A stretch of 64,000 bases of DNA from Marsupella aquatica (lineage: Eukaryota > Plantae > Marchantiophyta). Below are positions 1-53,584 of the stretch, in pieces. Numbering within the stretch: position 1 is the first letter of the stretch; each line of letters begins with the position of its first letter. Both the position numbers and the translations under genes were made by a program. The notes under the pieces were generated by a model, which had not been told where the DNA came from, made no database searches, and saw nothing but the letters and a program-made list of their open reading frames with translations. The stretch lies in the NCBI GenBank assembly GCA_973895155.1, contig OZ316899.1, forward strand, positions 13,209,934 through 13,273,933, written 5' to 3'.

Positions 1-1194
1 CCCGTGATTCGACTCGATGGTCACCTTCGGGTAATCTAAAGATCATCTTGAGCCGTTCTTCCGTGAGGGACATATTGCTTCCCCGCAGCCAAGTATGTTG
101 ACGTGCGTCATCATAATTCTTGGCGAATTCCGTCATGTCCTCCCCGTAGTACCTGCAAGTGTTCCAGGGGAGAGAGGCGAGGTGCTCGAATCCCTGAGTC
201 TTCAGGTACACCGCATGCTTGGGATGGAGGATGTTCTTATGCAAGTTTTCCCCCATGCGGTGCATTGTCACCTTGGCCACGGCTACCGTGGCCAATGGTA
301 ACCCGGATGCAGTGGCGGGTTCCTTCCTCTTCTTCCCCCGTGACTGGCTCGGGGAGGGTGACACCTCCCCATCCTCTCTATCGGGCATAGGTAGTGCTAC
401 CGCCGTTAGTATTGGGCCCGGGCGGCCACGGTCACCGTGTTGTCTGCTGGAGCCGCTCCTTGGGTCCGAGCATGGGGAGGGGACGATGTAGTGTCGGCCC
501 CCTGAGTGTTTGCTCCTCTGGGCCGCCCGAGCAAGGGTGGGGTAGCCTCGTCGTCGTCGCTAAGGTCCACAGCGTTGATGACGGAGCGTACTTGTACTGC
601 TGGCGGGGCGATCGGCGGTGGGGGTTGGCTAGGCTGAGACTGAGACTGAGACTGAGACTAAAGCTGAGCCTGAGTCTGAGTCTACGTTGGTGCGGGTACG
701 GGTATGGGGTCGACTGGGCCGGCGCCGGCGGTTGCGGGTCTAGTTCCCATGAAGCTCTGCAGGTGCTGGTAGAAGTTCTCCAAAGCAAGTGCAGACGACC
801 TTGTCGAACGGGTAGTGCTGGACTCGCTATTGATGATAGCCCGAACCTGAGCAAGGATGTGGTTGAAGTGATGTCGTTGCAAGTCCATCGTACCCAGGAT
901 ATTGAAGACCTCGTCCGGAAGCCAAAGCAATGCTTCCCAAAAACCGATATATTTGTCTCCGTTGAAGAAGTACCCAGATACCTCTGCTGGTCGGTAAAGC
1001 TCGCTTTGAGACGGGTAGTCAAAGTTAAGGATGTAGTGGTGTCGTCCTGCTAGGCGGATGGCTCTCTCGTACTCGCGTTCAATTTCATATTGGCACGGGT
1101 TGGCGTGTTTCAATGAGTCGGCCAAGTGTCTTCCGGTAGATAGGAACTGCGTCCAGAATCAAATGGCCAAACTGGAGAGGATCGTGTGCGACAT
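1..1194 (-). pseudogene. 3'-LTR copy of the LTR-encoded accessory ORF (N-terminal part, premature stops)
   Basis: Same protein as 11298->10110 (MSHTILSS..., SLKHANP..., FGLPEGDHR), with stops near 1160 and 682. Confidence 0.8.
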
Positions 1195-1651
1195 TCAGAG
1201 GAGATAGTAGTGGCGACTAAGAGCGAATGAGAGAGATGGGGTCAAAGCTGGCGCGTGGACTGATGGACTGGTGCACTACAAAGGGTCGGCTCCCTTGAGG
1301 GCTTGTTGATCCCCTGGCATCTCCTCATTGCCTATAGGCTGAACCGTTCACGCTCATAGTGTACCGGCCACTCCGCCAGTCTGAGTCACCGTGTGTCAGT
1401 GGACGCCTCCCGAAGTTTGTTATACGGACCCAAGGGAGGGGCCCCTCCACGCTCGTAACTCGGGCATGCGAATGGCGACGCGCCACTAGCCCAAACATGA
1501 ATTCCTCTTATTGACTAATGATTTCCTACTCATAATGGCTACCTAAATACTATCGTTATGCTAATCATAGTGACCTAAGAGACCCCTAACGCGCGTGCTA
1601 AGCATGGTTTAGACTGAATTACTCATTACTCGCCGTACCGGCAGTAGCACA
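1..1651 (-). repeat. 3' LTR (partial, cut by window edge) of the Athila-like element
   Basis: Starts TGTGCTACTGCCGG on the minus strand immediately after the PPT and is colinear with 11765->10110. Confidence 0.9.
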
Positions 1652-4600
1652 TAGCTCCCTGCTTAATTGTGAAGCGTCCTCGCGAACATCACTCTCGGCG
1701 TCGTCGTCTTGATGGTGGTATTTCTTTACACGATCGTAACTGACTCGCGTGGGGAGTAAATCGCCGGCGTACGTCGCAAGCTCCAAAGATCCGTTATGGT
1801 AGATCTGATTGACTAGGAAGGGCCCTAACCAACGGGTATGAAGCTTCCCTGGAAACTGCATATACCGACTATCGTACAGAAGAACTAGATCGCCTGTCAC
1901 GACGTCAACCTTCTGTAGTCCTTTGTCGTGCTGTTTCTTGGAAGTTGCCTGCTTCATTACGGCGTGTCGAGTTGCTAGTAGCCGTGCCTCTTCTAAGGCT
2001 TCAATCTGATAAGCTTGGTTTGACGAACTTTCAGATTCAGGTAAGCGATCCCGAATACTGACCCGTGGAGTGTGTACTTCAAACTTGACGGGTACCAACG
2101 AATGTTGGCCGAACATGAGAAAGTACGGGCTGTGACTCGTAGTAGTTTTGTAAGCTAGATTATACGAGTACACCGTTGCGTACAACTTATCGTCCCAATC
2201 CATTTTGTGCGCAGCTACAATTTTGTTGAAGATCTTCCCAATGATACCATTTGCTCTCTCTGTCATCCCATTGGCTTTAGGATGATACAGGGTAGTCTTG
2301 CGGTGCTTGACTAGGTAACGCTCCGTAAGCTGGGCTACAGTGTCATTGAGGAAGTGTGTTCCATGGTTGCTTACCAACTCTAAGGGTGGTCCGAACCGGG
2401 TGAAAATCTGTTCATATAAGAACCTGGCGCTGGTTGCGGCGTCGTCCTTCACCGTAGCCCGTGCTTCGACCCACTTGGTGGAGTAATCAATAGCTAGCAG
2501 GATGTACTTGCATCTTTGTCTTCGGGTAACGGGAGTAAATGGCCCGATATAATCAATACCCCACTTTTCGAACGGTGCTAATGGAAGCACGGACGTGAGA
2601 GGGTGATGATGAGCTCGTCTCGGGGCCCAGCCCGCTGACACAGGTCACAGCCCTTGATGAAGCGTTGTACATCCCGATGCAACGTAGGCCACCAATACCC
2701 TGAGTCCAGAATCTTTTGGGCTGTCGTGATAGCCGTGAAATGGCCTCCAACTTCTTCTTCATGCAAGGCCCGCATCACGATAAGCGTCTCCTTATACTCC
2801 AAGCAGCGTCGTAACTTCCCATTAACTCCTTCCTTATATAGGTGACCCTGTACCATGACGTAAGGCCCGACTTTCCGTAGAAACACAGCGGCGGCTTCCT
2901 GATTGATGCCGTCAAGGATGCGGCCTGTTAAGAGGAAGGTGATTATTGAGCCGTACCACGTTGGCGTCCCCGCCCCTACGTGGAACAACTCCTCATCCGG
3001 AAAAATATCATCAATTGGCTGATCGACTGGTATGCCGTCCAGCCTTGAAAAGAAGTCGGCATTGAGGTGTGCCTTTCCAGGCCGAACCCGAACTTCGTAG
3101 TTAAATTCCTGGAGAAGTAGCACCCACCGGGCTATCCATCCTGTCACGTCCGCTTTGTTGACCATGTACTTCAGGCTATCATGATCCGTGTGGAATATGA
3201 CCTTGTAGCCTAGTAGATAGTGTCGGAACTTTTTACATGAGTAGATTATTCCCAGAGCTTCTCGATCAGTGGGGGAATAATTCTTTTTGGCTATGAATAA
3301 TTGACGGCTAGCAAAGTAGATGGGGTGGTCGCGTCCGTCCTCATCAAGCTGACTGAGCACGGATCCAATACAGAACCCTGACACATCGACATACACGTGG
3401 AACTCCTTATTCCAGTCCGGAGTGACCATGATAGGTGCGGTGGTGAGTCTTTTATGGAGTTCTTCGAAAGCAATCCGTCTCCTGGGTGTCTCCTCGATCA
3501 CCGCGTCCTTTTTCATCATCTCAGTCAAGGGCAACGCTATTTTAGCAAAGTCTTTAATGAACCGACGGTAATACCCTACACAGCCCAAGAAGGATCGTAT
3601 CACTTTTTGATCTACGAGGAACACCACCGCCATCCAGGCCGCGACCTTCTCTTGGTCCACCTTGATACCCCGTTTGGACACATGATGCCCGAGTAACACT
3701 CCCTCCTCTACCCCGAAAAAGCATTTAGCGGGATGTAGTTTGAGGTTAACCTCTCGGCATCATTGTAACGTACGTCTTAGGTGTTCGGGGTGCATGGCGA
3801 TAGTTCCAAAGATGGCGAAGTCGTCGATAAATATCTCTAGAAATTCCTGTAGGAAATCATGGAAGATATTCATCATGAGTCGCTGAAACATGACCGGAGC
3901 GTTACACAGTCCGAACGGCATTCTCCGAAATGCGAAAGTCCCCCATTCCGTAGTGAACGTTGTTTTGAGCTGATCCAAGAGGCAAATCCAGATTTGGTTA
4001 TAACCCGAATACCCGTCAAGGAATGTATAAATTTCATTTTAGGCTACCATATCTAGAACCATATCCGTGAATGGTAACGGGTAATGGTCTTTTCGGGTCA
4101 CGTCGTGCAGCTAACGATAGTCCTGACAAATCCGGATCTTAGGTTTTCCGTCCGTTCCCCCCTTTTTTGGTACAATGACGATGGGAGAGACCCAGTCGTT
4201 GGCCATTACCAGGTAGATGATATCTGTGGCGAGGAGACGATCAATTTCCTCCTTCACTAAGATGGAGTACCTCGGGTTCATGCGACGTTGTTGCTGCCGT
4301 ACTGCATGGGCCCCCAGATTCAAATCGATCGTGTGTTCTCCTAACTTGGGGGAGACTCCTGTTAAATTGTGATGGCTCCATGCAAACACATCTTCATATT
4401 CCTTGAGCAGAGCTTGGATAGATTTTTCCGCCTCCCCCATCAGAGCGTGGCCCAGGTTAAACGATTTATCCATCCCAATGGTGTACTTCCGATAGTGCTC
4501 CTTCGTGATGACTTCAACCTGGTTCCGCAAGCTCGGGTCCAGGCTCGCATCAAGTTCAGCTAACCGAACTCCTCCGTACATGGGTGGAACCGGGATTGGT

Positions 4601-7600
4601 CTCGGGATTGGAGTTACTTCCTCCAACTGCGGGATGGACGGATCCCAGAAGACTCGTTTCTTATGTCTCGATCTCGGGTTTTCGGCCTCGGGTGGTTGTT
4701 TGGCTGGTTCGTGGTCACGAGGCTCTACACTGGTAGAAGCAGCATCGGCTCCTTGCTTAGCTGGAGCCGTGTCCTCCGTATCGATGAGTCGTTTTTGCGT
4801 TTCCTCATCCCAGGCAGTAGAGGTGCTCGGGGTGGGCTCAATAGCAGCCTTTGGGTAATTCAGGAGATGTGTTTCGCGGGTTGCCTCAACTCCGAAGACA
4901 TCTTCCTCGGACAGGGACGAGATGAGTTCAATCATGTTGAGTTCCCCTTCCTCTGAGGTCTCCGAATCATATTCCTCGGGTCCCTATGGGGTTTCGCCCT
5001 GATAATTGTCCATTGCCCATGATACCCGTACTGTGGGTGTCCCAAACCGTAGCTCCTTCTTTCCCCAATCCGTGACCACACGGCCACCGTATAGCCACGG
5101 CCTGCCTAGGAGGACCGGATAAGAGGAGGGCCGAACCGGCCTCATGACTAGGAAGTTGAGATAGAACTCCACCCCTCCTACCAGAGTGAGTACCCGTGTA
5201 AGCGTGCCCAATGGAAGTACCCTTGCCCCGTTTGCTAATCTGATAGCTCGGGCTGTGGGTTGATACGTGAGGTATCCTAACTTGATTGACGTTTCTTCAG
5301 TCATGATGTTGACTCCCGCTCCTCCGTCTACGAGAACCATCTTGATGGTACAATTATTAATTTCAATCGAGATGTCCGGCGCTCCCAGGTCCTCGCATAT
5401 CATGTTGCAATCCGCGATCCCAACTCGGGGTAGTCGTCTCCATCGTCGACCTGTAAGCAACTCCCTCAATTGCCGTCTGTACTGTGGATTGTTTTGCAGC
5501 AGTTGTCCTACCGTTGCTGTAACCGGGCAACTCTTCACGTCTTCCTTAATATCATAGTCCTCCTTCTTTTCTTCCTTCGGCTACTGCTTGGCTTCCTCTT
5601 GCTTATCTTGCTTTTCTTGCTCCTGTCGCCGGGCGGTCTCAACTGCTTTGATGTCCTTATCGATTGCCTTCTGGTATTCCCGAGCTTTGTAGGCCTCCAG
5701 CTGTTTCTTTACCAATTCTTCGATGCAGGGGAAAAATAGCTTCGGGTCGTCCAGTCGGTAGTCATCGTCCTTCTCCGGGGGTATATCTATCGCTGGCTGC
5801 ACCGGAGTAGTATCTTGCTTTTTCCTGCGTTTCTCCTCCTGCTTCTCTTCCTTCCGTTTGGCTCTTGTTGACACACGATAGCACTCAGCCTTGTTAGATG
5901 GATTAGGGTGTTCCGCCACGTCCACCAGATTCACCCACTCGGTGTTGTCATCTTGCCATTCCACCGCAATCATTTGGACGACCGCATCACTCGTGGCCGA
6001 TCCGCCCTGGGCTGGTCTTGTTGCATTTGTTCGAGCGGCCATTACCAATGGACAGTTGGCCATGGAATGAGTTTCCGTTTTGCAGACTTGACAAAGTGGC
6101 GTGCCACGGCCATCCCCCTGGCGTCTTGGTTCTGTGCATTCCCTCGCAAAATGGCCTGGTTTCTCACAGTTGTAACAAACCGGGGATCGCCAAATCCTTG
6201 GTTTAGGAGGAATGCTAGGGTTACTGATAACTTGGGAGCCTCGGTCATTGTTTGGGTAGGGGTATGCAATTCTACTTGCTAAGTTACGCGGACCCACCGT
6301 TGAAATCTGATACACCGAATCAGGAGGGTCTTCAAAGAAATTTTCTGTGGACTCCGCTTCAGGTCCGGGGTTGTCGACATCATCTAAGTCCACCTGGTGA
6401 ACTCGGTTCTTCCATCTTGGGCATTCTTGCACGACATGCCCGGATTGGAAGCACTTTGAACACCACGCATGGGCTCAAATCTCAGATGGCTTCTTCTTCT
6501 CCACCGGCTTTTCCGCGAGATGTACTGATAGTGCTTTGAGGTGATCCATGATTTCGTTAAGCTTGTCTGCTTCGGCAGCCTTTGGATTGGGTATCGTTAT
6601 GCGAGTACAAGATTTGATTTTCCCCTCCTTCTTAACCCGCCTTTTCTTCTTCTTGCTCCGGCTCTCACTCTCCGAATCACTTCCTGATGAGCTGGAGGTG
6701 GAGGACCCGCTGTTCGAAGTTGAATCCGAACTAGATTTAGTCTCCGAACTGGATGAGGTCGAACGATGTTTCTTCTTCTTCTTGCGTTTCTTCTTCTTCT
6801 TGTCGTCTGATTCGGAGTCACTATCACTGAAGGTCTCGTACTTGCCCTTCTTGCGGCGTGCCCGCTGGCTTCGCCGGGAGTTATAGGTGGACTCCCGGTA
6901 GGTTTTGGCGCACGCTATGGCTGCTTGCATTGAAATTGGATTATTTTGGCGCACCCAGAATTGCATATTCATGGGCAAACCATGGAGGAACCATGTAAGC
7001 TGGAGTGCATCACCAGACCTGGGCCGTATTTTGGCAGCAAGTTTTTGAAACTTCTGAATGAACTTTCGCAGAGACTCCTTTTTTCCCATGCAAAGCTGGC
7101 CGATCTTTAATAGCGAGCGCTGCTCGGATCCAATAGCACAAAATTCTTGCAGCAATGCAGCTTGGAATTGTGCCTATGTAGTCCCGGGTGGCAGCGAGTT
7201 GTACCATGGACGAGCTTCTCCCTGCATCACTCCGGGGAGGACGGTTAACTTAATGGCGTCTTCCCCGTTAGCCTTAGCAGTGGCTTCAAACTCATCCAAC
7301 CATTCATCCGGATCATCCCCATGACGCCCTTTGAAAGGTCGATAATGAAACCGCGATCATTGCGATATTTGTGGAGGAGCTTGGGCAGCGCAGGCCATCG
7401 GTGGGGCAGCTGCCATAGGTGGTGGCGGTGGTGGCGGTGGTGGCACAGGAACCGCAGTAGGACCGGTCGAACCGGACCCCGAAGGTCCCGGTGGTATATT
7501 CATTCATCGGGGCGATTGCGAGTCCTTCGAGCCCAAAGAATCGGAGCTTGTTGTGGTCGCACCTTCTCGTTCGCTGGTCAATCTCCTCAAGTAAGCTGCT

Positions 7601-7620
7601 TGAGAACGAGTGACGGGCAT
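1619..7620 (-). pseudogene. gag-pol: gag-pol polyprotein (Gag with 3 CCHC knuckles, protease, RT, RNase H, integrase); several in-frame stops and one frameshift near 2620
   Basis: Starts MPVTRSQ at 7620. Knuckles CFKCFQSGHVVQEC, CYNCEKPGHFAREC, CQVCKTETHSMANC. Protease VLVDGGAGVNIM. RT WVSPIVIVPKK, MPFGLCNAP, IFIDDFAIF. RH FHVYVDVS...TDHDSL. Integrase WGIDYIGP...ANGMTER. ORF pieces from 7155 to 3699 share one frame. Confidence 0.95.
1652..1664 (-). promoter_or_regulatory. Polypurine tract of the Athila-like element
   Basis: Minus-strand AAGCAGGGAGCTA directly before the TG that starts the 3' LTR; homology to the 5' LTR stops here. Confidence 0.7.
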
Positions 7621-7712
7621 TTACTCGTGTAAATGCGACGGTTAGTACTAGGGCCTGGTGTATTCTGCCTAGGCAAATACGCACATGTCTCCCCTCTACG
7701 ATATGTAGAGTG

Positions 7713-7731
7713 CCCCCTCCATCTAGCACCA
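7713..7731 (-). promoter_or_regulatory. Candidate primer-binding site (TGGTGCTAGATGGAGGGGG)
   Basis: TGG-initiated motif between the inferred LTR end (7745) and the gag ATG (7620). It lies 13 nt from the LTR end, which is atypical; the tRNA was not identified. Confidence 0.45.
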
Positions 7732-8646
7732 AAAACAAAGGCTATGTCACGTCATCAGCCTTGGCCTTAACTCGGGCTTCAACTTTAAATGGACACATCC
7801 TTCGTAAATATGAGGGTTCGGGCAGGGAGGGAAGAACGTAATGCACCTAATTCATGTAAACTAGCGCTAAGTGCGCCTACTGTTAGATACGGACATCTCC
7901 TAGGTATGGTTTGTATTCCACCACCGGAACGTACCTTAGTCGATAATAGGATTGACCCCGGCTTAAGGACTTCTAAGCCTTCGTGTTGTCCGCCTTCGAT
8001 CCGGATTCAATGATACAGGTCCTCAACCCGTGCTCGCAACCACATACCCGCAAGCTGCACCCCATGCACGACTCGGGTAGTGCGTTCGGCCCGGCGTTGT
8101 CACCTATACACAAGATTCACACACACACATACACGCGCACAAGCATTCAATCTTGATTTACACGAAGGAAATAATGGGAAAGGATTTTACTACATAGGGG
8201 ACATATGCGTACACTTGGTTGACCCGACAGCTCCAGAATGAACAAGTTCAAGGCCGAGGGAGTACACTACAACGGAGCCCGGCTCCGCACTCGCCCGACG
8301 AGCTTAGTCCTACCCCCTCCCCTTGGTACTCTTTCATTCCCAGTGGTCGGGACTCCCCGCACATACCACGGATGTCCAACTCTGAGACTAAAAACCCCCT
8401 CCCTGCCTCTACCAAGGGGTGCACTAAATACTAAGGGCCGAGGGACGGAGTGTCCTCTCGGCCGAAGATTCGCTGACTTAGGTCCTAACTAATCTGACTG
8501 TCAGGCCGAAAAATGGCTGTGTCTTATTAGAAGATCCTAATTTACGCAGGCTGGACAGCATGGCAGTGCTGCTGTAACTAAGGCAGGTGCCTGTCCCAAT
8601 TGCCTGACTTAGCTATTCCTAACCCTATTCTATTCCTACTCCGCCA

Positions 8647-11298
8647 CTAATGCCTGGCACGCTTGCCAGAGCCGCCCGAGTGGGAGCGGCCATCCCGCTG
8701 CTTACGAAGTTTGTCGTTGTCTGCCTTGAGGAGCTGGACCTGGTCCAGCAGAGATTCGTTCTCTCGCTTCGCCGTGTCTGTCTCCTCCGCTGCCTCCTGG
8801 CATGCCTCCTCCAGCTGCTGGGCGTCGCTCATCAGCTTGCCCGCCAGCTGGTCCTACTTCTCGGCTTTGGTTTGGAGCCGCGCCACTTTGGCCTGTAGCG
8901 TGGCTATCTCCGTAGTGTCTCGCTGGGCCCGTTCTTTGGCCTCCTCCAGTCTTTCTGCCAGATGACAGTTTGATTCTTCAAACTATCAATCTGGTTCCGG
9001 AGTCGTGCAATCTCAGCCTCGTTCCCAGCTTTGGCCTGCTCGGCTAGGGCGGTAAGGGCGTGCGCCTTTACTAACAACTCATCGGCGGCTGCAACTTTGG
9101 GTCGTAGTTGCAGAAGCTCAGCCTCTTGAGCCGCAACTTCATTCTTTAAGTATACGGACTCCACCCGGTACCGCTCAATCCTCTGAAGGGCCTCTGACTG
9201 GGCCCGACCTGCCTTTACTGCGGCAACTAACTCCTGATTGAAGAAACAGGCTACCTTCCGGGCCATGAACTCCCCGATATCCCGGGCAATTTGATGAGAG
9301 AAATCTCCCAGAAGCCCGTTCAGAAATGTACCCGGTATGAAGAGTTCCAAGTGGTCCAGGTTGTGCCTATCTGGAGTTAGGCACGGGGTAGACGTCAACA
9401 CGCGCGGGGGCCGGGGCAGTGACATCCAACCCTGGGGACGTAATGTTGGAAGGGGCTAGAGTGTCCTCCTGCAGCAATGTCCGGCGCTCTGGAATAGCCA
9501 CCGGTGGGTCGTTGGGAGACCCGGGCTCGAGTAAGGCCTCCGCTGTACTGACTTCTGTACTTAGCCCGGCCTGTTGGATCGCATCTACGGTTGCGATAAC
9601 CGACCCATCCGGTACCTCCTCGGTTATGACTACAACTACTTATGGAGGTGGGGTGGGTGAAGCTTGCTTGTCCGCTGGACTTCGGGCCTCGGGTTGGGGC
9701 CGTCTCTCCAAGGCCAGGAAAACCCACCTAGTTGGGCCCAACTTTGTAACGTTGACACAGGGAAGGGTTCGTCGATCAAACCGAGCGTACCACTCAAGAA
9801 TGATCTCGATGTGGCTAGCGAAATACGCCTTCCCGCCAATGTACAGCGTCTTCCTTCGCCGCTCCATCTCTTCATGGAATTTCTTAGCGAAGTACAATGC
9901 CCACTTCCTAGGTCGATAGTTCTCGACCTGGATAACCTGGGCGGCGGAGATCTCCCCCCGGGGTTCCATCATGTGGAGGGCGTACCTTTGGAACTCCAGT
10001 CGCTCAGCTATCTCGGGGATGAGGCAGGTCCTCATCACGAACCCGTTGTCCACTGCTCCCTCTGAGGGAAAACTCGAGGATTGGTACTTGGCTCCCTTGC
10101 CCCCGGGAGCCCGTGATTCGACTCGATGGTCACCTTCGGGTAATCCGAAGATCATCTTGAGCTGTTCTTCCGTGAGGGACATATTCCTTCCCCGCAGCCG
10201 AGTATGTTGATGTGCGTCATCATAATTCTTGACAAATTCCGTCATGTCCTCCCCGTAGTACCTGCAAGTGTTCCAGGGGAGAGAGGCGAGGTGCTCGAAT
10301 CCCTGATTCTTCAGGTACACCGCATGCTTGGGATGGAGGATGTTCTTATGCACGTTTTCCCCCATGCGATGCATTGTCACCTTGGCCACGGCTACCGTGG
10401 CCAATGGTAACCCGGATGTAGTGGCGGGTTCCTTCCTCTTCTTCCCCCGTGACTGGCTTGGGGAGGGTGACACCTCCCCATCCTCTCTATCGGGCATAGG
10501 TAGTGCTACCGCCGTTAGTATTGGGCCCGGGGCGGCCACGGTCACCGTGTTGTCTGCTGGAGCCGCTCCTTGGGTCCGAGCATGGGGAGGGGACGATGTA
10601 GTGTCGGCCCCCTGAGTGTTTGCTCCTCTGGGCCGCCCGAGCAAGGGTGGGGTAGCCTCGTCGTCGTCGCTAAGGTCCACAGCGTTGATGACGGAGCATA
10701 CTTGTACTGCTGGCGGGGCGATCGGCGGTGGGGGTTGGCTAGGCTGAGACTGAGACTGAAGCTGAGCCTGAGCCTGAGTCTGAGTCTGCGTTGGTGCGGG
10801 TACGGGTATGGGGTCGACTGGGCTGGCGCCGGCGGTTGCGGGTCTAGTTCCCATGAAGCTCTGCAGGTGCTGGTAGAAGTTCTCCGAAGCAAGTGCAGAC
10901 GACCTTGTCGAATGGGTAGTGCTGGACTCGCTGTTGATGATAGCCCGAACCTGAGCAGGGATGTGGTCGAAGTGATGTCGTTGCAAGTCAATTGTACCCG
11001 GGATATTGAAGACCTCGTCCGGAAGCCGAAGCAATGCTTCCCAGAAACTGATATATTTATCTCCGTTGAAGAAGTACCCAGATACCTCTGTTGGTCGGTA
11101 AAGCTCGCTCTGAGATGGGTAGTCAAAGTTAAGGATGTAGTGGTGTTGTCCTGCTAGGCGGATGGCTCTCTCGTACTCGCGTTCGATTTCATATCGGCGC
11201 GGGTTGGCGTGTTTCAATGAGTTGGCCAAGTGTCTTCCGGTAGATAGGAACTGCGTCCAGAATCGAATGGCCGAACTGGAGAGGATCGTGTGCGACAT
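8647..11298 (-). pseudogene. LTR-encoded accessory protein, ~880 codons (N-terminal domain, P/Q linker, conserved plant-transposon-type domain, coiled coil, basic tail); one stop and two frameshifts
   Basis: A 552-aa ORF (11298-9640) continues in frame past TAA to ~9370, then shifts into 9425-8904, then into 8832-8647. Domain GFEHLASLPW...EFVKNY...TRLRG...LT...IFGLPEG...NGF...C..P; C-terminus ...GSGKRARH. Confidence 0.8.
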
Positions 11299-11399
11299 TC
11301 AGAGGAGATAGTAGTGGCGACTAAGAGCAAACGAGAGAGCTGGGGTCAAAGCTGGCGCGTGGACTGATGGACTGGTGCACTACAAAGGGTCGGCTCCCT

Positions 11400-11406
11400 T
11401 TTTATA
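11400..11406 (-). promoter_or_regulatory. TATA box (TATAAAA) ~108 bp upstream of the LTR-ORF ATG
   Basis: Minus-strand GGTATAAAAAGGG. The corresponding 10 bp are deleted in the 3' LTR copy (~1296). Confidence 0.55.
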
Positions 11407-11978
11407 CCTTGAGGGCTTGTCGATCCCCCGACATCTCCTCGTTGCCTATAGGCTAAACCGTTCACGCTTGTAGTGTACCGGCCACTCCGCCGGTCTGAGT
11501 CACCGCGTGTCAGTGGACGCCTCCTGAAGTTCGTTATACGGACCCAAGGGAGGGGCCCCTCCACGCTCGTAACTCGGGCGTGCAAATGGCGACGCGCCGC
11601 CAGCCCGAACATGAATTCCTCTTATTGACTAATGATTTCCTACTCATAATGGCTACCTAAATATTGTCGTTATGCTAATCATAGCGGCCTAAGATACCCC
11701 TAACGCGCGTGCTAAGCACGGTTTAGACCAAATTACTGATTACTCGCCGTACCGGCGGTGTCACATTTCGCATTGCTCCCCCTGAGTCATTCACTTTTGT
11801 GGCTCTCTTATAGTCATTCTTTCCGTCATGTTGGCGCGGCTGCCATTTCTTGTAAATTTCTGTTGTGATCTTTGTTCGAGATCTGTTCGAGTTGAGCTGG
11901 TCCAAGCTTCGCGGTGTAGCCTACGGGTCGGTCTCCCCTTGAGCAAAACGAGCGCGGCCACTGTAAGTATAATTGTGT

Positions 11979-16973: not shown

Positions 16974-17251
16974 TTAAGAGATTTATGTGCCAGAAGTTGA
17001 ACGAAGCAATCAAGTACTGAGACGCCAAGAAAGTACAAGCCTTGGTGCTTTGAGGGAATCAAGAGAAGAGGAGGGACTATTCAGGTCCAGAATTTATCAT
17101 TGCTATCGAAGGAACGTTGAGCGATTCTTAAAGGCAGTGGCAGAGTACTGTGAGCAAACGTTTTCTTCTTGGGAGTGGAAGCAATCTGATCCATTGAAGG
17201 GAGGCTTTTAGCAATAGACGAGAGTTTCTTGATCCAAGATTGGGGAGAGCG

Positions 17252-19655
17252 ATGGGAAAGGCAAAGATGGTTTTGATGCCACCTGATTCAGAGATCGTGG
17301 CGAATGTAGACAACTATCGGAAAGTGGGGATAGAATCGCTTGCGGATTTCCTTTGGGTGATTAGTAGCGCAAGTTTGGTGGATGAAATTCAGTTGCGGAA
17401 TAGGACCTCGAAAGGGTTGAGCCCCAGGTCGGATTATACTGCATTCAGTCTGAAGGCAGTACCGGACTGCTATGTCATTTCATCTTTAGGTCTTACCCCT
17501 GAGGATTTTACATCTTCCCGTCTCTTCCATGACATTTGCAAGGATCGATTTTTGAGTGCGTTTACAAAGGAAGGTTTCACGCCCGATTCTGCTTGTGATC
17601 CTGCGCTTAGGGTGATTTTCCGCTTCATCGTGCCCATCCTTACTCCTAATAAGCCAAAAGGATTATTGGAAAGCTGGCAACAATGATTATCACTGCATAT
17701 GAGAAGGGGAAGCCGGTCAACTGGGCAAGTCTTCTTTGGGAGTCATTTCAGCTATGATGCAAAAAGGTGAAGGATGGGATGGATTTCTTTATTTCGCCAA
17801 TGTTGTATCATCTGTATCGATCGGAGGGGAAACTGTCACCTATGGAACTCCAAGAATATGAAGAGGCCTTGGCCAATTGGTCACTCATGGAAGATCCGCC
17901 TTCAGCTGAGGATGCCACTGACAGCGAAGAGGAAGATTGTGCTGAACCGATCATCAAATCTAAAGTGATCGGCGGCCGAGTGTTGCGGAAACGACAAGAG
18001 ACAGTCAAATTGCCTCCTAGAGCATCAAAGATCAAGAAGAGAGAGGGGGCAGTGCCATTTGTGAATCTGGAAGGCAAAGAAGACATTTCCCTGATTGAAG
18101 CAAAATTTTGTGCTGTTACAGAGGAGTTTTGTAAGGCAAATTCCGCAAATGCTAAACTTGTGGAGGACTTGTCGAATCATTTTTCTTGCCCTTCGATTGA
18201 CCTTCTTGATCACATTGACAAATTGCTAGTTCAAGTTGCTGCTGCCAATAAAGAGAAGCAGAACCATGATACAAAGACGAAGCGCTTGGAGAAGCAAATT
18301 CAAGAATTGGTCCAAGGAACTGTTTTGCCAGCGATTCAGCATTCTGTTGTACAGATCGGAGAAGCAGCTCAAACAATCGCTCTGTTGACAGTAGAACGAC
18401 TCCAACTTGCAGCATTGACCTCTGAAGGGTGGCAGACTGATGAAAAGAGTTTGAGCCGGATTGCCATAGCCATTACTAATCAGAAAGGACTTCTGGACCG
18501 GAAGTATGAAGTACTATTCAAGGTGGTAGGCGAATTGAAGGATTTTGTTGACCACCGTCTTCCTGCCATTCCTCCACCCAAAATGATTCTTGAAGAGAGA
18601 CCTCAGACAGAAGCAGTCATTTTACCAATCCGTAATGATTTGACTGTATTATCGTGTGAAGGGAGACAAGACTTAGAGCGGTTTTCCCATGGGTTAATTC
18701 GTTTCATTACACCCTCGGTCGATTTCCTTTGCTACTACCGTATTCAAAAGTTCATGGTCTGTTATTATTATTGTTTACCTGACTTTGAAAAGACCAGAAA
18801 GGTATCATTGACCCTAATCTATAGTGTCTGGAGTAAATCCACTACGGATGCCCGAGAATTGCTAGCGTTGCCTTACTTTTTGGAGACCTGCAGGTTGATG
18901 ATCTTTCTCTAGCTACCAGACTGCTTGGAAACCTTGCAGGGTGGGCTACTAAGTTTCAATGTGGCTATCTAGCCAAGTTAGATGAGCATCTTTCAAACTT
19001 GGTCGCTGGTGACATTGAGATTCACTCTGGCTCTACTGTCAACTTGATACCAGACGTTTCCAGTGGTTCATGTAATTTTGATTCCCTAATCCAGAAGCGG
19101 AGGGCGACTGTCACTTTGGAGAGCCAGGTACTTTTGGAAGGCTTGAAGTCAAATCTTGAAGTTTTTCGAGAACAGGAAAGCCCTACAGTCTTTGACCAGA
19201 TACAGCAAATTGGAGGTGATTCCGGATTCAGTGTCAAAAAATTGGAGAGGGCGATTCTTGCATCAGCCCGAGTTCAGATACTGCTTCTCACTGATGAAAA
19301 GTTTGAGTTGTCAGAGGAAATTCGCCGGTACTCCTGCCCTACCCCGATGATTGACCGTGAATATGTTTTTGTTGCTAAGATGGTGGAAGACAATCAGTTG
19401 TTCAATCCTCCATTGGTTACTCCTGAATTTACTCAGCCTCAGTTTGAAGAAGACCAGGACTTATCTGAACCGATTCCTTCTGTTGAGCCTTGCAATTCTT
19501 CTCCAGTTAATGACATTCCAACAGAGGATGTTTTAGAAGAGGATGAGGAGCCAAGTACCGAGATCATTCAGATGGAGACTATTGAGGACTCTTTTCCCCC
19601 TGTCTGCCGATCCGGTCTTGAGAAGCGAAAGCAATTCCTTGGCCAGAAGTCTTAA
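17252..19655 (+). pseudogene. Degenerate retroelement accessory ORF (distant relative of the LTR-encoded proteins; coiled coil, acidic tail)
   Basis: Pieces 17240-17686, 17767-18912 and 18999-19655. Motifs GIESLADFLW, TKEGF...CDP...FIVPILTPNKP, VNWASLLW, FISPMLYHLY; coiled-coil-like AANKEKQNHDTKTKRLEKQIQEL. Confidence 0.6.
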
Positions 19656-19699
19656 GAAGACCCGAAGATTCCCACCCGCTGTCCTCAAGCGAAAGATGC

Positions 19700-21783
19700 C
19701 ACCAAGCGATAGTTGAGGCCTGAAGTACATGCTGCCATTTTGTGAGAAGATTTCTGAATTTCAGGGCACTGTTTAAAGAGCCTGATGTACTACAGAGATT
19801 CGAAGGAGAGCTTTATAAACTGTGACATTTTTTCAGCTGTGCTTACTTGATGACTCTGAACTGAGATGTTTTCTATTGGCGAATTTCCCCCTTATGTTTT
19901 ATTCTTCCTACTCTAGATCCTTTGCAAAACTCTATCTCTACTGTACCTCAATCGCTTTTAATCAGGAATTATGAAGCGATCTCTTTCCTTTCAATAAGTT
20001 TATTCATTTCTTTTCTTTCATCCTCCCCATGTTTATCCCTTAGTGCTCAGTCCCTGAAAACTACCTTTTGCTTTACATATTTCCCAAAAATCTCCAAAAG
20101 TTATTAAAATCAGAACCGTTTCTATCCTTTGAGTCAAAATACCTCAAACCGTTTCATTTTTAACTTTAAAACTCTCTTTGTTTTTCCTTAGCTTACCCAT
20201 CTTTTGATTTTTCCTCAATGAATTCTCCCTAACTTTTGACCTCTCCTCCATTAAATCTCCATGTCTGGCCATAGAACTCCTGGTTCTATAAGGATTGCTG
20301 CTTTGAGAAGAGCTTTTCTTCAAGCTCAGACCTTGAGTTTGAGAGGAAGGAATGGCTTGCATTGGATTGCCATTACTTGGTGGGAAGATGTTACCCTGCA
20401 TATTATCCATTTTTCTACAATGGGACCATCAATAACATTGAGCATTTGGTACTGGACATTTATGCTTTGGCCAATCCTCCAACAAGAAGAAGAGGCCACC
20501 CTAGAAGATCATGATGCTGGAGGAGACCATGACCCGGTACATCCGAAGAAGAGAATTTTCCACGACTCAAGTGTTTGCGAGGTCACTTCACATTTGAGGA
20601 GGGGGTTATGTGGAAAGGTAAAAAGGAACTACGGAGTGAAAGTGATCCATTTTAAAACATTTTAACCTTACTTGAAGCTTATTTAGGTTTATCCATCACC
20701 CCTTAATCCATTTTAAGCCTCAAAGGAATGTTATGGAAGAAAGCTAAGAAGTTTGAGTTTGGAAGGAAGAATCGCTTCAGACAAAAAATCGGTTTCAAAG
20801 AAATCCGAAAGAAATCGCTTCGGGAGGAAGCAGAAGAATCGCTTTGCAGAAAGACCAGCAGAAGAATCGCTTTGGAAGTTGGAAAACCGGTTTAGACTTT
20901 TGGAAGCAACTTTGACGGACGATTGTGATCGGTCCCATATCGGTTTGAGGAGATTTTTGGTGCGTTGGAAAGATCTTATCAAGGGCTATAAGGAGAATTT
21001 AAGTTTGGTCCCAAAAGACCAACTTCAGAATAACCCAAACCGATTCTCCAAGGTTTTTTGGCATATGTTACTTAAATCATTTTCTATCTCTTTTCTCACC
21101 TCTTGAACCTTTCCATGAGTTAGATAGAGTAGGATATAGAGGGACATAGTTTAGTGTACCTTTAGGAATTAGATTTAGAGAGTTTTTAGGCTTCTAAACC
21201 TTTTGGCATCTTAAACCTTTTGAGGGAGCCTTACAAGTGGACTCCCAAGATCATGATTCATTGTCTTTTCTTCAACATTGATTTTTGACCAAGTGTGGGT
21301 CTTTTTCTCATGCCAAATTGGGCTTAGGAGAAAGAATTTAATGGAGAAGACTTGTACCACTCACATCAATTGAATTTCAAACATTTCATGAATCAAACTT
21401 AAGTATTCAAGTTTTGATGTTTGAATTAGTTGTAGGAAATAGATTTGAATGGATAACTAAGGTGTGCCTTTGAAATCTAGTTGAAATGGGAATTGTACCA
21501 ACCTTCGTGACGTAAAACCGATCACTACTAAGTGTATAAGGAAGTTAGAGGGAAGAGAAAACCTTTCAATCTATCGAGAAGAAGCCGAACCTAAGGAATT
21601 TCATTTCAGCATTTGTGACATACTAATCGTTTCAGGATTATATAAGGAAAAATAGCAAAGAAATCACTTGAAGATTTTGAACATCACAAAACCTTGGTAA
21701 ATCACTTTGTTTATTCTTTACGGGACCAAATCTTGGTATTTAAGGATAAAAGTATATACATTTGTATGATTCCACTTACCACA
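19700..21783 (+). repeat. Probable LTR sequence (U3 repeats, TATA, CT-rich R/U5) ending ...TTACCACA; start undefined
   Basis: Repeated AAGAATCGCT-type motifs at 20767-20875, CTATAAGG near 20985, a pyrimidine tract after it, and a CA end resembling the solo-LTR end GCACCACA. No second copy in the window. Confidence 0.4.
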
Positions 21784-31727: not shown

Positions 31728-32228
31728 CGATCTGCATCATCACAAAACAAAAAATTATTGAGTAAAATGCCTTGAGTACACAAACCTATACAATATTGAG
31801 CACTTATTTTTGCAAAAGAGTCTCGAGTGCTACTTTGAGTTCACAAATTAAGTACTATTCCTCTAGTTCACTTTCTTTGCTGCATGTAACTACTCAATCC
31901 CTATTGACTGTGTGTGACATCACATCCAATTTTGTCCTCACTCTAAAGAAGAACCATCGTACATTCTCAATTGAAGGGATAATCAACACAGACATCAAGA
32001 CAATTCCCTTTTGGGTTGACATCATATGATCACATCCAAGTTTGTCCTCACCCAAAGACGAAGTCATCCTAAGAGTCTAATAATTAAAGGGAACAAACAG
32101 AGACATGAAGACTGTTTCCTTTTGGATCAATGCGCCAGTGTAGTGCCTGCCAGGCTTTTTAGAGGAATCTTAAAATTAATTTATAGCTATAACAGTGAAA
32201 TCTTCTTTTCAGCAACAAAAGTTACTGC

Positions 32229-32600
32229 AAACTTGAGATAGGTATAATGACAAGCAGAAGGAAAGCGCAACTGAATGAGGTAATAAATCAAGATTCTAAT
32301 GAAATCAGGAGCAACAAGTCTTACTACAAACTTGAGACAAGTATAATGACGAGCAGAAGGAAATTGCAACTGAATGAGATAATAAATCAAGATTCTAATA
32401 AAATCAGGAGCAACAAAAGTCTTAGTGCATACAGGTTTAATGACAAGCAAAAGGAAAGCGCACTGAATTGAGGTATTAAATCAAGATTCTAATGAAATCA
32501 GGTAGTAGATTCTACTATAGAAGCTATCGGACAGACGCAACTGAGTGAGATAATAAATCAAAATCAGGCAGTAGATTCTACTATAGAAGCTATCAGATAA
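32229..32600. repeat. Degenerate tandem repeats (~100-bp unit x~3, then a shorter unit x2) upstream of the Myb ORF
   Basis: Recurrent AATGACAAGCA...GGAAAGCGCA...AAATCAAGATTCTAATGAAATCAGG, and GTAGATTCTACTATAGAAGCTATC twice. Confidence 0.75.
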
Positions 32601-42756: not shown

Positions 42757-42761
42757 ACATT

Positions 42762-48843: not shown

Positions 48844-51800
48844 TGTGATGCCTAGCCAGGAATCACTCGGCTAGTTTAAGTGGAATTGGGAAGTGTACCC
48901 TAGAAACACCTTAGTATAGTTACAGAAATAAGAAAATATAAACAATTAAGGGTGACTATGGAACCCGAGCCGAGGCTGGAAGTAAGGACGCCAGGGGAGA
49001 GAACACGATTAGGGTTAGGGCACGATAAATGCCGGCGGCTAGGGGTCACCAACGGGAGAGAAATGCCAAGGAGGAGAGGGGTAAGGACCGCTCGTGAAGA
49101 GTTGTGGCTCATTTGCAGGCACAAACTGGGCAGACGACTACGGGCGGCCAACTACTATCAGTTGCTTAAGCAAGCACTCAGGGGGGGAGCAGATACCGAC
49201 TATCAACTTGATAAGGGTATGAGCAACGTCAATCAAGCGGCACATTTTTGGGGATGCCTGTTCGAACGGGCAACTGAGTACATTGGGACTTACGAGGACG
49301 AAGAATCGAAGAGAGCAGCTCGAGAACGGCAGGAGCTCGCTCGATTGTGGGAGCTGCAGAAAGCTGCCTTCTTAGGAGGAGAACTCATCAAGGCCGAATT
49401 CTTGTGGACTCCTACTACCAATCAACTCGACGACCTTCTGTTTTGCGAAGACAGAGTCGTCGGCATCCGCGAAGCCATCAAGCGCTGCAACGGCCTACAC
49501 TGGGAGTTGAAGGGTAGCACGGAGGGGTGGACAAAGGCAACCGTGCTTGGAGAGACATCCACGGCAGCCGAGATGAAGAGGAAGGGAATTAACAACGACG
49601 AGGCCACCCCGGCAAAAAGAACGAGGTCGGCGGCACCAAAGAAACCAGCCGAACAGCAGAGCAGGAGGCAGAGAGAAGCCGAGGAGGAGGAGGTCGACCC
49701 CATCAATGCCATTCCAACGAGAGATGACACCTGGAAAGGCTGGGCGGCGATCCTCCCCGAGGAGGTCCAATTACACTTTGCAAGAGAGGAGGATGCATGC
49801 TTTACAGCTATACAGACTCGGAAATATGAGGGCTTCATGGCCGGATCCGGCTTGGAAGCCTTCGTAAGGTTACCGTGACTGAAGCCGGAGGTGTCGAATT
49901 CAGACTTACTGGAATTCATGGGATCATGGGAGTCCGAGACCAATTCCACAAGGGTGTATGGGAAGGAATTCTATCTCACTCCTCAGGTGATTGCCGAAGT
50001 ATTTGGCTTGCCGATGGGCAATAAGACCAAGGTAGATACCAGGAAGACCTTGCCAGACACGGAGTTCAGGTTGTTTCCAGGGCCTTCAACAAAGAATGGT
50101 TTTTTCCGTAACACTTGCACCAACCCGCATATAGGAGAGATGATCGATTTCTTGCGGGTGACCATGCATTGCAACTGGCCGAGAGCAGAGATCGGCAAGG
50201 CATAGGTCTATCTGGCAGAGAGGCCAGACCCAAGCCGGGACTACAACGGTTACCTCCTCACTCAACTAAAGAAGATCTTGAAGGAGGAACAGCTGGTGAT
50301 CGGCAAGGGAAGCGTATCCCGGCTTGGCTATCACATGCCGCTATTGTGCCGGTATGCCCGAAGTAAGACCTTTGCCCCGGTACTTCCCCTACAAGCAAGG
50401 GCACCAGAAGAGGTTCCGGAACAGAGGCCGGCAACGGAGAAACCTAAACCGCCCGACAGTCCTACAATCGAGCAGGTGTTTAGGCCAAGGACAGAGGACT
50501 TGCCGATGCAACAACCAGGCATGCAGAATCTGTTGAAACTGCTGGAGAAAGAAAAGAGAACGGCTACGGCATCGGCAACAACAACAACAACGGCAACGGC
50601 AACAGCAACAATACAGGACACTGCTCCATAGGTAGGCCTAAACCGGCTTACAAGGGCAAACCCCTTTACTGGAATCAAGGAGAGAAGGAGGCCGGAACAC
50701 GAGCCGGGAGTCCGGATGTATGTAGGAGCCTCTAGTCCCGAAGCTGAAGAGAAGCAGGCCGTAGCTCCCGGCCCCAACAAGGAGAACAAGAGATCAACAC
50801 GGAAGCCGGAGGAGGAACCAAGACCGGCAAGAGGAGAAGCCGTGTTCACAACAAAATCAGGAGAACAGCGGGAGAAGCCGGTAGTCCAAGCCGAGGAGGA
50901 GGCGGTGGAGGACTACAGCAATGATAACTCCGGCTACGGGTCAGATCATCATGTTCCAGGACTAAGGACATGTGGCCGGTTTATCCCCACACTCCCAAGA
51001 GTAGTCCGAGGGGACCCGAGCCAGCAGAGCAGCCCCGAGTCTCCCCCGCCAGATGTCGCTCCCCCAAGCTTTGACGGCATAAAACAGACGGCGCAGGAAT
51101 TTCAGGAGCAAATGAGGGAGGAAGAGGAGGCAGCCCTGGCTAGGGAGAAGGATTTACCAGGAGGAGAATGGCCAGAGAACATCAGACGGCTTGCAGAAAA
51201 ACGAAGCAGCCCTCCGGCCACGATAGAGGAGATCCGCAAGGCGGCTTGGGAACAAAGGCCGCGGTGGATGATGCCGATGACTTCTACTTCCTCCACCTAT
51301 GCTAAAAATAGAGCCATGGAGTATGGGGAGATGTGTGGAGAACTAGCGCTCAGCATCTTTGGGGAGGAGTTGGAGCAGGGACCCTTTTTCCAGAGGGAGA
51401 TGTTGGAGAAGCGCCATTTAGAAGAAGCGGTGGCCTTGGAAAGAAGCAAGAAGGACGAGGTCATCCGTCGGCTTAGGGAAAGGGAAGCCAAAATCAAGGA
51501 CCTAAGGGCGGCCAAGAAAGCCCAAGATGAGCTGCGGATTAAGCGGCATGAGCTAAATATCATGCAGGGCCAGTTGGATACCGCACAGTCTGATAATCGG
51601 ATGATCGAGAATCTACTGATGCGGACCCAAGGAGAGTTGGCCGATGCGATCAAGGAGCGGGAGAAGTGGAAGCGAGAGCTAAGGGATGCAGAGGAGGCCC
51701 ACATAACAGCCAACAACCGGGCCATGGCGGAGACCCAGAGAAGGGAAAGGGCGTTGAAGGGGGAGCTCGAGGTTATCCGTGGAGCCCTTAAGCAGAAGGA

Positions 51801-53579
51801 GGCTGAGTTAGGGAAATCCTATCAAGGGATTATTGCACTGCAGCAGGAACTTGCATCCCTGACGGCCAGCTTCAAGGCCGACCTACGGGAGAAGGACGAC
51901 CAGCTCGACCAGACTTATGCCAAGATGAATAAAATGGAGTCTGAGGTCGTAACGGAGCTCGACAAAGAGCTAAGAGAAACCTAGGAGGAGAGGGCTACCT
52001 TGAAGAAGGAATTGGAGGAAGCCCACAGGGAGTTGGAGGAAGCCCAGAAAGAACTGGAGGAGGCGTGCAAGGACCTGGACGAAGTACAGGAGGAGTTGGA
52101 GGAAAGCACGCGGAAGCTGGAGAACTTACAACGGCGAGCCAACAACTAAACAGAGCGGCTGAAGAAACAAGCCGCAGTAATTAAAGGCTTGGCTCCATCA
52201 GGCCCAACTCCAATTGGGGCAACCAAGTTACCAGGAGTGGTACTGGCCGAAGAACAAGCCGCGCCATTTGCACTAGTACCGGAAGTAAGTGGGAAGGGGA
52301 AGGGGCCAGCTGCCGAACCAGAAAAGAAGAAGAAGCGGAAACCTTCAGGGTCAGGGAGTAATACGGCTCCACAGGCCATGGTGACCAAGGAGGCAGACCC
52401 AGCACCGACCCCAGGCAGGGTCACGGCAGAGGATCCAACTACCCTAGAAGCAGGGGATGACGAAGCTGAGGCTCAGGCCGAAGCCGTGGGTGATGCCGAA
52501 GCCGGTGCCGGTGCCGAGGCCGAAGCCGAAGGTGGACCCAGTCAGGCCGATGGAGAGTTGACTCAGTCAAGGGCAGGTAATCTGTCAGAGAACGAACCTA
52601 CGACAGTGGCTGAGGTGGAAGCGTTGGGGGCGTCCACTGAGGAACAGACACCGCTGCCATGACGGTGGTGGAGGGCCGCTCCTTTCAGGGAGGGCGGACG
52701 TGGAGGGAGGAGGCGTGAGTGGGCAGGGCGGGCTCGGATCTCTAAGTTTAGGATTAGGATCAGGACCAGGAGACGGCCCTGGCACTTAGCTTAGTGGGAT
52801 TGCGGTTCCACTAGTAAGAGCAACACTTGTACTCCTACCTTGCTGTACATAGGTAGATTCAGTTAGGTAGATTCGTTAGATAGATTTGGCTTACGCTGCA
52901 AGGAATTAGGCGGATCCGTGTCCAGGATAAGTACTTGGGCAGCGGGGAGCTCAGGGCCTCTTCTTTAGCAAATTTTTAGTTGCACCAGCCGGGCTGGGAT
53001 CAAGTAGTAAGAGAAGCTCTCGGTTAGTCATATAGTGACCCTTGTGTATATTCATGTTTCCTCATGCCTAAGAGCTGAATAGAGTTGGCCTCACAGCTTA
53101 GTTTGCAGAGCTTGTGTATGAGATGTACTGTTTGTATGGCAAGTGCATGGTATGACTCAGTCAGAAGGAGTCATTTTGCTATTTGTGTGTCGCATTAACT
53201 TGTGTGAAGAGTGCCCACATCAACTAATAGATGAAGGAAAGTAAGCAAGGGAGTGAGAGTTGGATGTGTCGAGCTGAGAGAGGTCTTAGCGGCTTAACCA
53301 AGCCTATTGGGGATCATTCCGGTGGCGGAATCCAAATATACCCAACCAGAAGGAGAGGAAGAGAAGGGAAGGCCCAGATTAGGCCGGCTACATATCTCAT
53401 GACCCGATGAAGGATCTGTCCAGTATATGTGTGTAAAATGTTAATAGTAGTAGTAGAAGGAGGTTAGCAGCGTCCCATGCCACTAAGCCGCGAAAATGGC
53501 CTCGCCAAGCGCAAAACCTGCGGGAATCGGCTTGTGCTGGGGGGTTTCTTGGGTTTAGGGAGCCATGGGACGCACCACA
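48844..53579 (+). mobile_element. Giant solo LTR (4736 bp) carrying one long ORF; TG...CA ends, TSD TCCTT
   Basis: TCCTT (48839-48843) TGTGATGC...GCACCACA TCCTT (53580-53584). Removing it restores the LINE RT sequence ETLFL-KLDFEKAFDRV. No gag/pol inside; the ORF is homologous to the ORF in the 7745-11765 LTR. Confidence 0.85.
48958..52662 (+). pseudogene. LTR-encoded accessory protein, ~1200-1234 codons in a single frame with five in-frame stops
   Basis: ORFs at 48952, 49891, 50278, 50716 and 52189 share one frame. GLEAFVRLP*...LLEF...TRVYG...LT...VFGLPMG...KNGF...C..P domain; long E/K/R coiled coil (~51400-52170); KKKKRK motif; acidic tail. The start could be ATG 48958 or 49063. Confidence 0.85.
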
Positions 53580-53584
53580 TCCTT

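Follow-up and report, generated by a model that had tools for sequence, protein, structure and literature searches.

The window, a stretch of 64,000 nucleotides from the liverwort Marsupella aquatica (assembly GCA_973895155.1, contig OZ316899.1, forward-strand positions 13,209,934 to 13,273,933), contains a minus-strand Ty3/gypsy retrotransposon. The element starts at position 11765 and runs leftwards off the left edge of the window. It has the gene order gag, protease (PR), reverse transcriptase (RT), RNase H (RH) and integrase (IN), and a pair of long terminal repeats (LTRs; paired over the visible 1,651 bp) with a primer binding site (PBS)-like site and a polypurine tract (PPT), consistent with Ty3/gypsy elements. 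The 5′ LTR is likely about 4 kb long, and an accessory open reading frame (ORF) very probably lies inside it. The gene copy in this element is decayed and dead. The features are listed in Table 1.

Positions 1–1651 and 10110–11765 form a direct repeat of 94.5% identity. TG stands at the minus-strand start of both copies, one immediately following the PPT (1651) and the other at the flank (11765), which bears out the two starts proposed in the initial annotation (after the PPT, and upstream of PBS and gag). Over 1,645 bp, the twin copies differed by 63 transitions and 9 transversions, a Kimura two-parameter distance of 0.046. The far end of the 3′ LTR would lie 2,365 bp left of the window, and the full element would measure ~14 kb. 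The exact 3′ end of the LTR (7745) was placed by a PBS spacing like that of relatives and by one 355-bp depth bin. The junction of CA, spacer and TGG was as in the related loci L003, L004 and L005, with spacers of 3, 7 and 11 nt, compared with 13 nt in the window. The PBS is presumably tRNA-Asn-like in the window element and tRNA-Asp-like in these three loci.

The PR-RT-RH-IN part has a single RNase H region and no aRH domain. No chromodomain was found: the integrase stops at the PPT, with its frame reading on through the PPT into the 3′ LTR, and its C-terminal 215 aa gave no Pfam match. Among the best 120 of 285 RT-RH matches, the nearest named relatives were proteins of the liverwort Calypogeia fissa (63–65% identity), and those of Marchantia, Physcomitrium and Riccia ranked lower.

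Table 1. Positions of the described features in the window.
Feature	Position	Strand	Description and basis
5′ LTR	7745..11765	-	TG...CA, 4,021 bp; repeat start, PBS spacing, depth step
3′ LTR	1..1651	-	Includes first part of ORF, cut by window edge; repeat
PBS-like site	7714..7731	-	TGG, after 13-nt T-rich spacer from CA at 7745
Lineage-conserved motif and PPT	1652..1687	-	Immediately at integrase end
gag-PR-RT-RH-IN	1619..7503	-	8 in-frame stops, frameshift near 2625
5′ flank	11766..11770	.	Expected half of target site duplication, partner beyond window
TATA box	11400..11406	-	Sole canonical one in LTR, 108 bp before ORF start
Accessory gene	8647..11298	-	884-codon span; collinear with intact P0163
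D1	10927..11298	-	~120-aa conserved helical domain; profiles, model pLDDT 82
D2	9781..10401	-	~205 aa, predicted VANC21/DUF1985/PMD-like fold; 41 homologs, pLDDT 87.8
C-terminal coiled-coil region	8650..9455	-	In broken pieces; sub-cut-off Pfam matches, P0163 C-terminus
Solo LTR of related family	48844..53579	+	4,736 bp, TG...CA; ends, target site duplication, split LINE
Homologous accessory gene in solo LTR	49219..52662	+	D1, D2 and coiled coil
Likely sister-element remnant	17200..20610	+	Decayed ORF before PPT motif (20573) and TG (~20609)

Extent of the LTR and a solo LTR of like build

The depth of public contigs was investigated in four runs from two studies, with the first internal bin (at the PPT) excluded. 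The median summed contig depth of the LTR bins (7687–11591), which is not a copy number, was 4.2, 5.6, 4.9 and 5.8 times that of the internal bins (2007–7686). Forty-two of the 44 LTR bins exceeded the highest internal bin of their own run, and the step was located in the bin holding 7745 in all four runs. With a depth ratio of 4–6, compared with 2 for intact elements only, solo LTRs appear, on this rough measure, to outnumber internal regions. No second PPT motif, PBS-like site or terminal direct repeat was found inside the 4-kb segment.

A solo LTR of a related family was found on the plus strand of the same window. It is flanked by a 5-bp target site duplication (TSD; 48839–48843 and 53580–53584) and splits the RT frame of a long interspersed nuclear element (LINE), which resumes exactly across it. 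Neither gag, pol nor an internal terminal direct repeat was found in it. In its accessory gene, a single frame runs for 1,148 codons and is interrupted by 5 stops, compared with 49 and 36 stops in the other frames. The ORF matched profiles built without window sequence for both conserved domains described below (D2, independent E-value (iE) 2e-27; D1, iE 0.006). The leader and trailer were 375 and 917 bp, compared with 467 and 902 bp in the window LTR. A very large accessory gene inside an LTR is thus directly shown by this TSD-flanked copy, and the earlier claim that a solo LTR keeps the gene cassette was supported by a full-length homologous ORF, in a distant family. The matching build and the homologous ORF suggest a full-length parent for this solo LTR.

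The LINE that hosts the solo LTR has an endonuclease-RT ORF at 46921–54910 (plus strand) with a 108-bp internal duplication at 47861–48076. The two LTRs could not otherwise be aligned, but near their 3′ ends an 18-of-20-nt match (E 0.056) was observed between ~7910–7929 (minus strand) and 53317–53336 (plus strand); it is possibly a conserved U5 signal.

Relatives were sought by an integrase scan of metagenome contigs, which gave 312 candidate stretches and from these 65 loci. The conserved motif with PPT and TG was present in 10 of the 65; one further motif match with two mismatches and no PPT was excluded. In eight of the ten, the motif stands directly after the integrase, as in the window (PPT-first). 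A D2-family ORF follows downstream in five of these eight (L002, L003, L008, L009, and L010), and the other three end too early. No second motif was found within 218–1,100 bp after the ORF in L002, L009 and L008. In L005 and L012 (ORF-first), pol is followed by a D2-family ORF, and the motif lies ~90 and ~30 bp beyond it. The circular contig L005 carries a PBS, and its LTR of ~1.0 kb contains no ORF, which is the classic internal layout. Straight after the integrase, ORF-first elements carry a purine tract without TG. The sister remnant in the window gave weak D2 matches (iE 0.005 and 0.025) and is likely an ORF-first sister element in the same genome.

The location of the ORF within the LTR, as first proposed, was supported by the TSD-flanked solo LTR, by the depth step, by the absence of an internal PPT, PBS or terminal direct repeat and by the five relatives with the order PPT, TG, ORF. 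Two other explanations of the 4-kb unit were considered. Instead of being one LTR, the unit could combine a short LTR with an internal ORF, as part of a tandem array, or it could be a segmental duplication. Sister L005 does combine a ~1-kb LTR with an internal ORF, and the left copy in the window is cut after 1,651 bp with its TSD unseen. However, the repeat starts exactly at the TG after the PPT, no second PPT motif, PBS-like site or terminal direct repeat lies within the unit, depth is elevated across the entire 4 kb, and a 4.7-kb TSD-flanked unit of like build exists; this explanation is very unlikely. It is highly improbable that the unit is a separate TG..CA mobile element, namely a non-autonomous DNA transposon carrying the ORF. 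The window unit falls exactly between the PPT and PBS positions to either side of gag-pol, and the PPT-TG-ORF order is repeated in relatives. The unit at 48844–53579 does stand alone and has an imperfect 8-bp inverted end, but neither a longer terminal inverted repeat nor a transposase-like catalytic domain was detected.

The accessory gene and its predicted protein

The ATG of the accessory ORF is at 11298, 467 bp into the LTR, and the final stop codon at 8649 leaves 902 bp to the LTR end, in agreement with the ~460 and ~900 bp of the initial annotation. The entire ~880-codon gene described there was found as a span of exactly 884 codons, but the frame is open for only 552 of them. Stops occur at 9642 and 8856, and a frameshift near 9386 is followed by a compensating one near 8948. 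Contigs of other copies deviate from the window at both frameshift sites. The ORF was also said to be the same in both repeats. The start is indeed shared, but only the first ~1.2 kb is visible in the 3′ LTR copy, with one stop and one frameshift. A 10-bp piece with the TATA box is missing from that copy. An intact natural homolog, P0163 (906 aa), aligned end to end with 11277–8653; identity to the window N-terminus was 33% over 543 columns, and the match reached the last residues. P0163, collinear across the whole span, shows that the decayed ORF is one gene.

The protein consists of D1 (~120 aa), a linker, D2 (~205 aa), a second linker and a coiled coil. The C-terminal region gave weak matches to coiled-coil families in Pfam, all below the cut-off. 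A full HMMER search of 1.84 billion proteins found 41 D2 homologs at E up to 0.001, whereas a word-indexed protein search with the 552-aa part found none. Calypogeia names were present on four of the ten D2-homolog clusters looked up, and several homologs are deposited as unnamed Calypogeia fissa proteins. Pfam gave no match for the ORF or for 24 natural homologs (two repeat-type rows were disregarded), PDB sequence searches gave coiled-coil noise only, and no close copy was found in viral contigs. No RNA source of the sequence came up, which carries no information about expression. The GTDB search yielded four short contigs only. L066 and L067, short contigs of a cyanobacterial metagenome-assembled genome, have integrases of this lineage (47% identity) and are likely host-plant contamination of the bin.

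The ratio of nonsynonymous to synonymous substitution (dN/dS) between the twin LTRs was 0.86 and 0.67, near neutral. Such values are expected after insertion and are therefore uninformative on past selection. Between the LTR-borne ORFs of L003 and L010, dN was 0.28 and dS 3.1. The ratio was 0.2–0.3 for three more distant ORF pairs, and dS was saturated in the remaining pairs. These substitution ratios show coding selection acting on the relatives' LTR-borne ORFs.

The three-dimensional structure of D2 was modelled from 40 sequences (confidence in Table 1). The top Foldseek match was VANC21 bound to its target DNA (probability 0.98, TM-score 0.49, E 0.021). The VANC21-DNA complex was also the top match by VIA among 48,161 chains, with Z 8.3, a root-mean-square deviation of 4.1 and 208/246 aligned, compared with Z 2.2 for the next match. 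The likeness is modest at this E-value, with 9–11% identity and a Z near the reach of unrelated models. In the ESM Atlas, unnamed Streptophyta clusters ranked first (0.90), followed by DUF1985 and PMD clusters (0.88), which is a lead only. Transposase_32 matches, below the cut-off, were found in 2 of 10 relatives (L012, E 6e-5; L050, E 2e-4), and the window D2 gave no Pfam match to DUF1985, PMD or Transposase_32. The viral fold library gave no match. D2 is predicted from the model to belong to the VANC/DUF1985/PMD/Athila-ORF1 fold group. The D1 model also folded (Table 1); no match above background was found for it (Foldseek best E 1.4; VIA best Z 5.6), which is not evidence of a new fold. The resemblance to VANC, PMD and Athila ORF1, the decay of the gene and the sisters with the ORF before the PPT had all been missed by the initial annotation.

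VANC binds a short motif in dense arrays in non-coding transposable element (TE) DNA and strips methylation (PMC5735166). It is similar to MAIN, and oligomerisation via coiled coils is predicted for VANC and for Athila-domain proteins (PMC13547354). PMD-C resembles DUF1985 and counteracts Polycomb silencing, with direct DNA binding unproven, and PMD-A is retrotransposon-encoded (10.1101/2024.09.27.615353). Transposase_32 is related to Athila ORF1 (PMC11728184).

Membrane segments and short motifs were also investigated. The 19-residue Kyte-Doolittle maximum was 1.3 for the N-terminal 552 aa of the window protein, 0.8 for the solo-LTR ORF and 0.9–1.8 for three homologs. By this measure, the proteins of the window have no transmembrane-grade stretch and are not env-like. 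A 6-mer was enriched above all 100 shuffles in the 3′ part of L004, the trailer of L008 and the leaders of L003 and L007. The ATCCGG/TCCGGA family of 6-mers packs L004:1–1395, L008:4986–6092, L007:2626–3314 and L003:6148–6660, which are non-coding LTR parts of one LTR-borne sub-clade; L004 has 35 copies compared with a shuffle maximum of 14. The motif is a candidate binding site of a VANC-like protein in those relatives.

Origin and possible function of the LTR-borne gene

The 24-row integrase tree comprised the window together with 18 close loci and 5 rows as outgroup. The nine PPT-first rows formed one clade (97/93), which was sister to one ORF-first clade, with another lying deeper. A quick 43-row tree was concordant. 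Two of the seven ORF-first labels were confirmed, and the other five rest on a missing motif after the integrase. The PPT-first clade is nested among ORF-first elements, so the LTR-borne layout is likely derived, and there is good reason to believe that the LTR-borne ORF came from a 3′ internal position. In the D2 tree (29 rows), five metagenome LTR-borne ORFs grouped with L005, L006 and L028, apart from the two of the window (100/99). None of 200 bootstrap trees (0%) had the LTR-borne D2 in one clade, and an approximately unbiased test did not reject the rival integrase topology (p 0.13). These two results speak against a single origin. Either two relocations or one relocation and a later ORF exchange would fit.

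Plus-strand priming at the PPT defines the left edge of U3, both LTRs receive a copy of all U3 content, and recombination between the LTRs generates a solo LTR. Since plus-strand priming sets the U3 edge, a PPT upstream of the ORF suffices to copy the ORF into both LTRs. The functional PPT would have moved from behind the ORF to directly behind the integrase, where sisters carry a spare purine tract. This shift would have placed the ORF in U3, and hence in both LTRs. The ORF may have a TATA promoter of its own near 11406, and transcription of the genomic RNA would depend on a second promoter within the 900-bp trailer. According to prediction, D2 would bind DNA and the coiled coil would oligomerise. 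The protein could act in trans as an anti-silencer or activator, and intact solo LTRs would supply it.

Taken together, it appears fairly probable that the element is a decayed non-chromovirus Ty3/gypsy element, likely with a 4-kb LTR that holds a relocated gene for a VANC/PMD-fold DNA-binding protein. According to the structure model, the accessory protein is probably a nuclear DNA-binding regulator of the element. A specifically anti-silencing role is predicted with slightly less than even confidence. It is rather doubtful that, as a whole, a bryophyte lineage built an anti-silencing gene into U3 by a PPT shift, possibly made twice, with solo LTRs as a standing source of the trans factor.

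Several points weigh against this reading, apart from the modest fold match, the ESM Atlas ranking and the sub-cut-off Transposase_32 matches given above. Non-autonomous derivatives would raise contig depth too, and one of the four depth runs may be the window's own source. The TSD and the far 3′ LTR end of the window copy lie unseen beyond the window edge, and the five PPT-first relatives are all incomplete, with only the LTR start seen. No second TATA was found in the ~900-bp trailer, and no enriched 6-mer was found in any of the four leaders and trailers of the window LTRs. The twin LTRs diverged mostly at CG sites (16% of CG compared with 2% of CHH sites), so this copy was likely methylated after insertion. 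The CpG observed/expected ratio was high in the window element (0.81–1.09), compared with 0.32–0.54 in five other TE stretches. An unrelated gypsy stretch also reached 0.81 and the solo LTR had 0.57–0.68, so this ratio does not count as support.

Two alternatives concern the promoter and the protein. The ORF could lie in the LTR but in R/U5, with the TATA box at 11406 starting the genomic RNA, the ORF as first cistron and gag-pol expressed via splicing or read-through. The sole canonical TATA box of the 4 kb does lie 360 bp in. However, a strong-stop DNA of ~3.6 kb would be required, the TATA box is lost from the 3′ copy, and in sisters L005 and L012 the ORF lies just upstream of the PPT, whence a PPT shift leads to U3. 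A location in R/U5 is thus unlikely. The protein could also be a structural or targeting factor, such as an integration-site tether or particle scaffold, and no silencing regulator. This function was considered improbable: the only clear solved match is a DNA-bound sequence-specific anti-silencer, and a 6-mer is strongly enriched in the non-coding LTR parts of several LTR-borne relatives (35 vs 14 in L004). It would be consistent with the long coiled coil, with a D1 without family, with the lack of motif arrays in the window's LTRs and with a fold common to PMD proteins, for which direct binding to DNA is unproven (10.1101/2024.09.27.615353).

The element and its putative U3-borne regulator gene were compared with known systems. 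The window element is similar to Athila in having no chromodomain and no aRH, and the related solo LTR has a 5-bp TSD as Athila does (PMC6317226). The extra ORF of relatives may be related to Transposase_32, which is linked to Athila ORF1 (PMC11728184). The ORF-first sisters hold the ORF between pol and PPT. The PBS of Athila corresponds to tRNA-Asp, Asn or Ala (PMC6317226). In contrast to Athila, the PPT of the window element abuts the integrase and the ORF lies in the LTR; an ORF between pol and PPT was found only in sisters L005 and L012. The element may work like an Athila type with a relocated extra ORF, set apart from Athila by its layout, in trees that held no REXdb rows.

Tat elements (TatI-III, Ogre, Retand) carry an aRH (PMC6317226), unlike the window element, and chromoviruses carry a chromodomain after the integrase, which is also absent here. 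Phygy and Selgy, non-chromoviruses of moss and clubmoss, are similar in lacking chromodomain and aRH, in their non-seed-plant hosts and in a polyprotein that occupies nearly the whole internal region (PMC6317226). They differ in their 4-bp TSDs, 4–10 kb length and absence of an extra ORF (eORF) (PMC6317226), whereas the window element has an eORF and would be ~14 kb long, and its relative has a 5-bp TSD. The features of Phygy in particular (4-bp NCGN TSD, no eORF, 7.7–10 kb; PMC6317226) do not fit the window element with its eORF and probable length of ~14 kb.

VANC21 of VANDAL21, a Mutator-like DNA transposon, and the PMD proteins MAIN and MAIL1 share the predicted fold of D2. VANC21 is likewise a TE-encoded accessory protein with a coiled coil (PMC13547354). 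The window protein differs from it in its 9–11% identity, its LTR location, its additional D1 and the lack of a motif array in the window LTRs. Conserved extra ORFs of large plant Ty3/gypsy elements are also known as Ogre ORF1, ORF0 of Retrosat2, RIRE3 and RIRE8, and the ORFs of Retand TRP28 (PMC7264820, PMC11963269). In the available parts of these sources, their place is either upstream of gag-pol or in the stretch from pol to the 3′ LTR, and none lies in an LTR. In Retrosat2, whose LTRs exceed 3.2 kb, ORF0 is situated upstream of gag-pol (PMC3485330), and the extra ORFs of Retand are antisense and internal (PMC11963269). Extra ORFs are likewise described as lying either upstream of gag or after pol and before the 3′ LTR (PMC7264820, PMC6317226). 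The available parts of PMC12885004 and 10.1101/2021.07.15.452536 held nothing on LTR-borne genes. Literature searches of partial coverage, with supplements that may hold cases, gave no account of a plant retrotransposon that carries a gene within its LTR. In retroviruses, sag of mouse mammary tumour virus (MMTV) is a gene wholly in U3, and nef of human immunodeficiency virus (HIV) overlaps U3. The likeness to sag and nef lies in a protein gene that both LTRs carry and solo LTRs retain; the difference is that these are retroviral and their proteins much shorter and unrelated.

Solo-LTR formation is usually taken to remove coding capacity, but here a full gene remains. Both layouts occur side by side in the lineage, which makes the passage of the gene from an internal 3′ position into U3 traceable. 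Through the predicted fold, the extra ORFs of plant Ty3/gypsy elements (Athila ORF1, Transposase_32), long without explanation, would be tied to the solved structure of an anti-silencer on DNA, and the function of such ORFs becomes testable in a liverwort model. For genome annotation, ORFs of solo LTRs resemble free-standing host genes. If an anti-silencer does lie in U3, the LTR would hold both the protein gene and its DNA target. Host recombination, the usual removal route, would then leave each solo LTR as a source that keeps the family unsilenced.

Other features of the window

A decayed Ty1/copia pol (11979–15039, minus strand) begins ~200 bp from the 5′ LTR flank. A copia-like element at 35970–42757, with ~340-bp LTRs (93% identical), is nested in a gypsy pol. 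The Myb/SANT-like (trihelix) ORF at 30786–31727 (minus strand; PF13837, E 2e-9) is either a host gene or a Harbinger-type accessory gene. Dispersed repeats were found at 33215–33787 and 60790–61361, and at 26252–26471 and 46291–46511. Two tandem arrays, 32211–32597 and 61533–61990, have a 99-bp unit and a G-rich ~45-bp unit.

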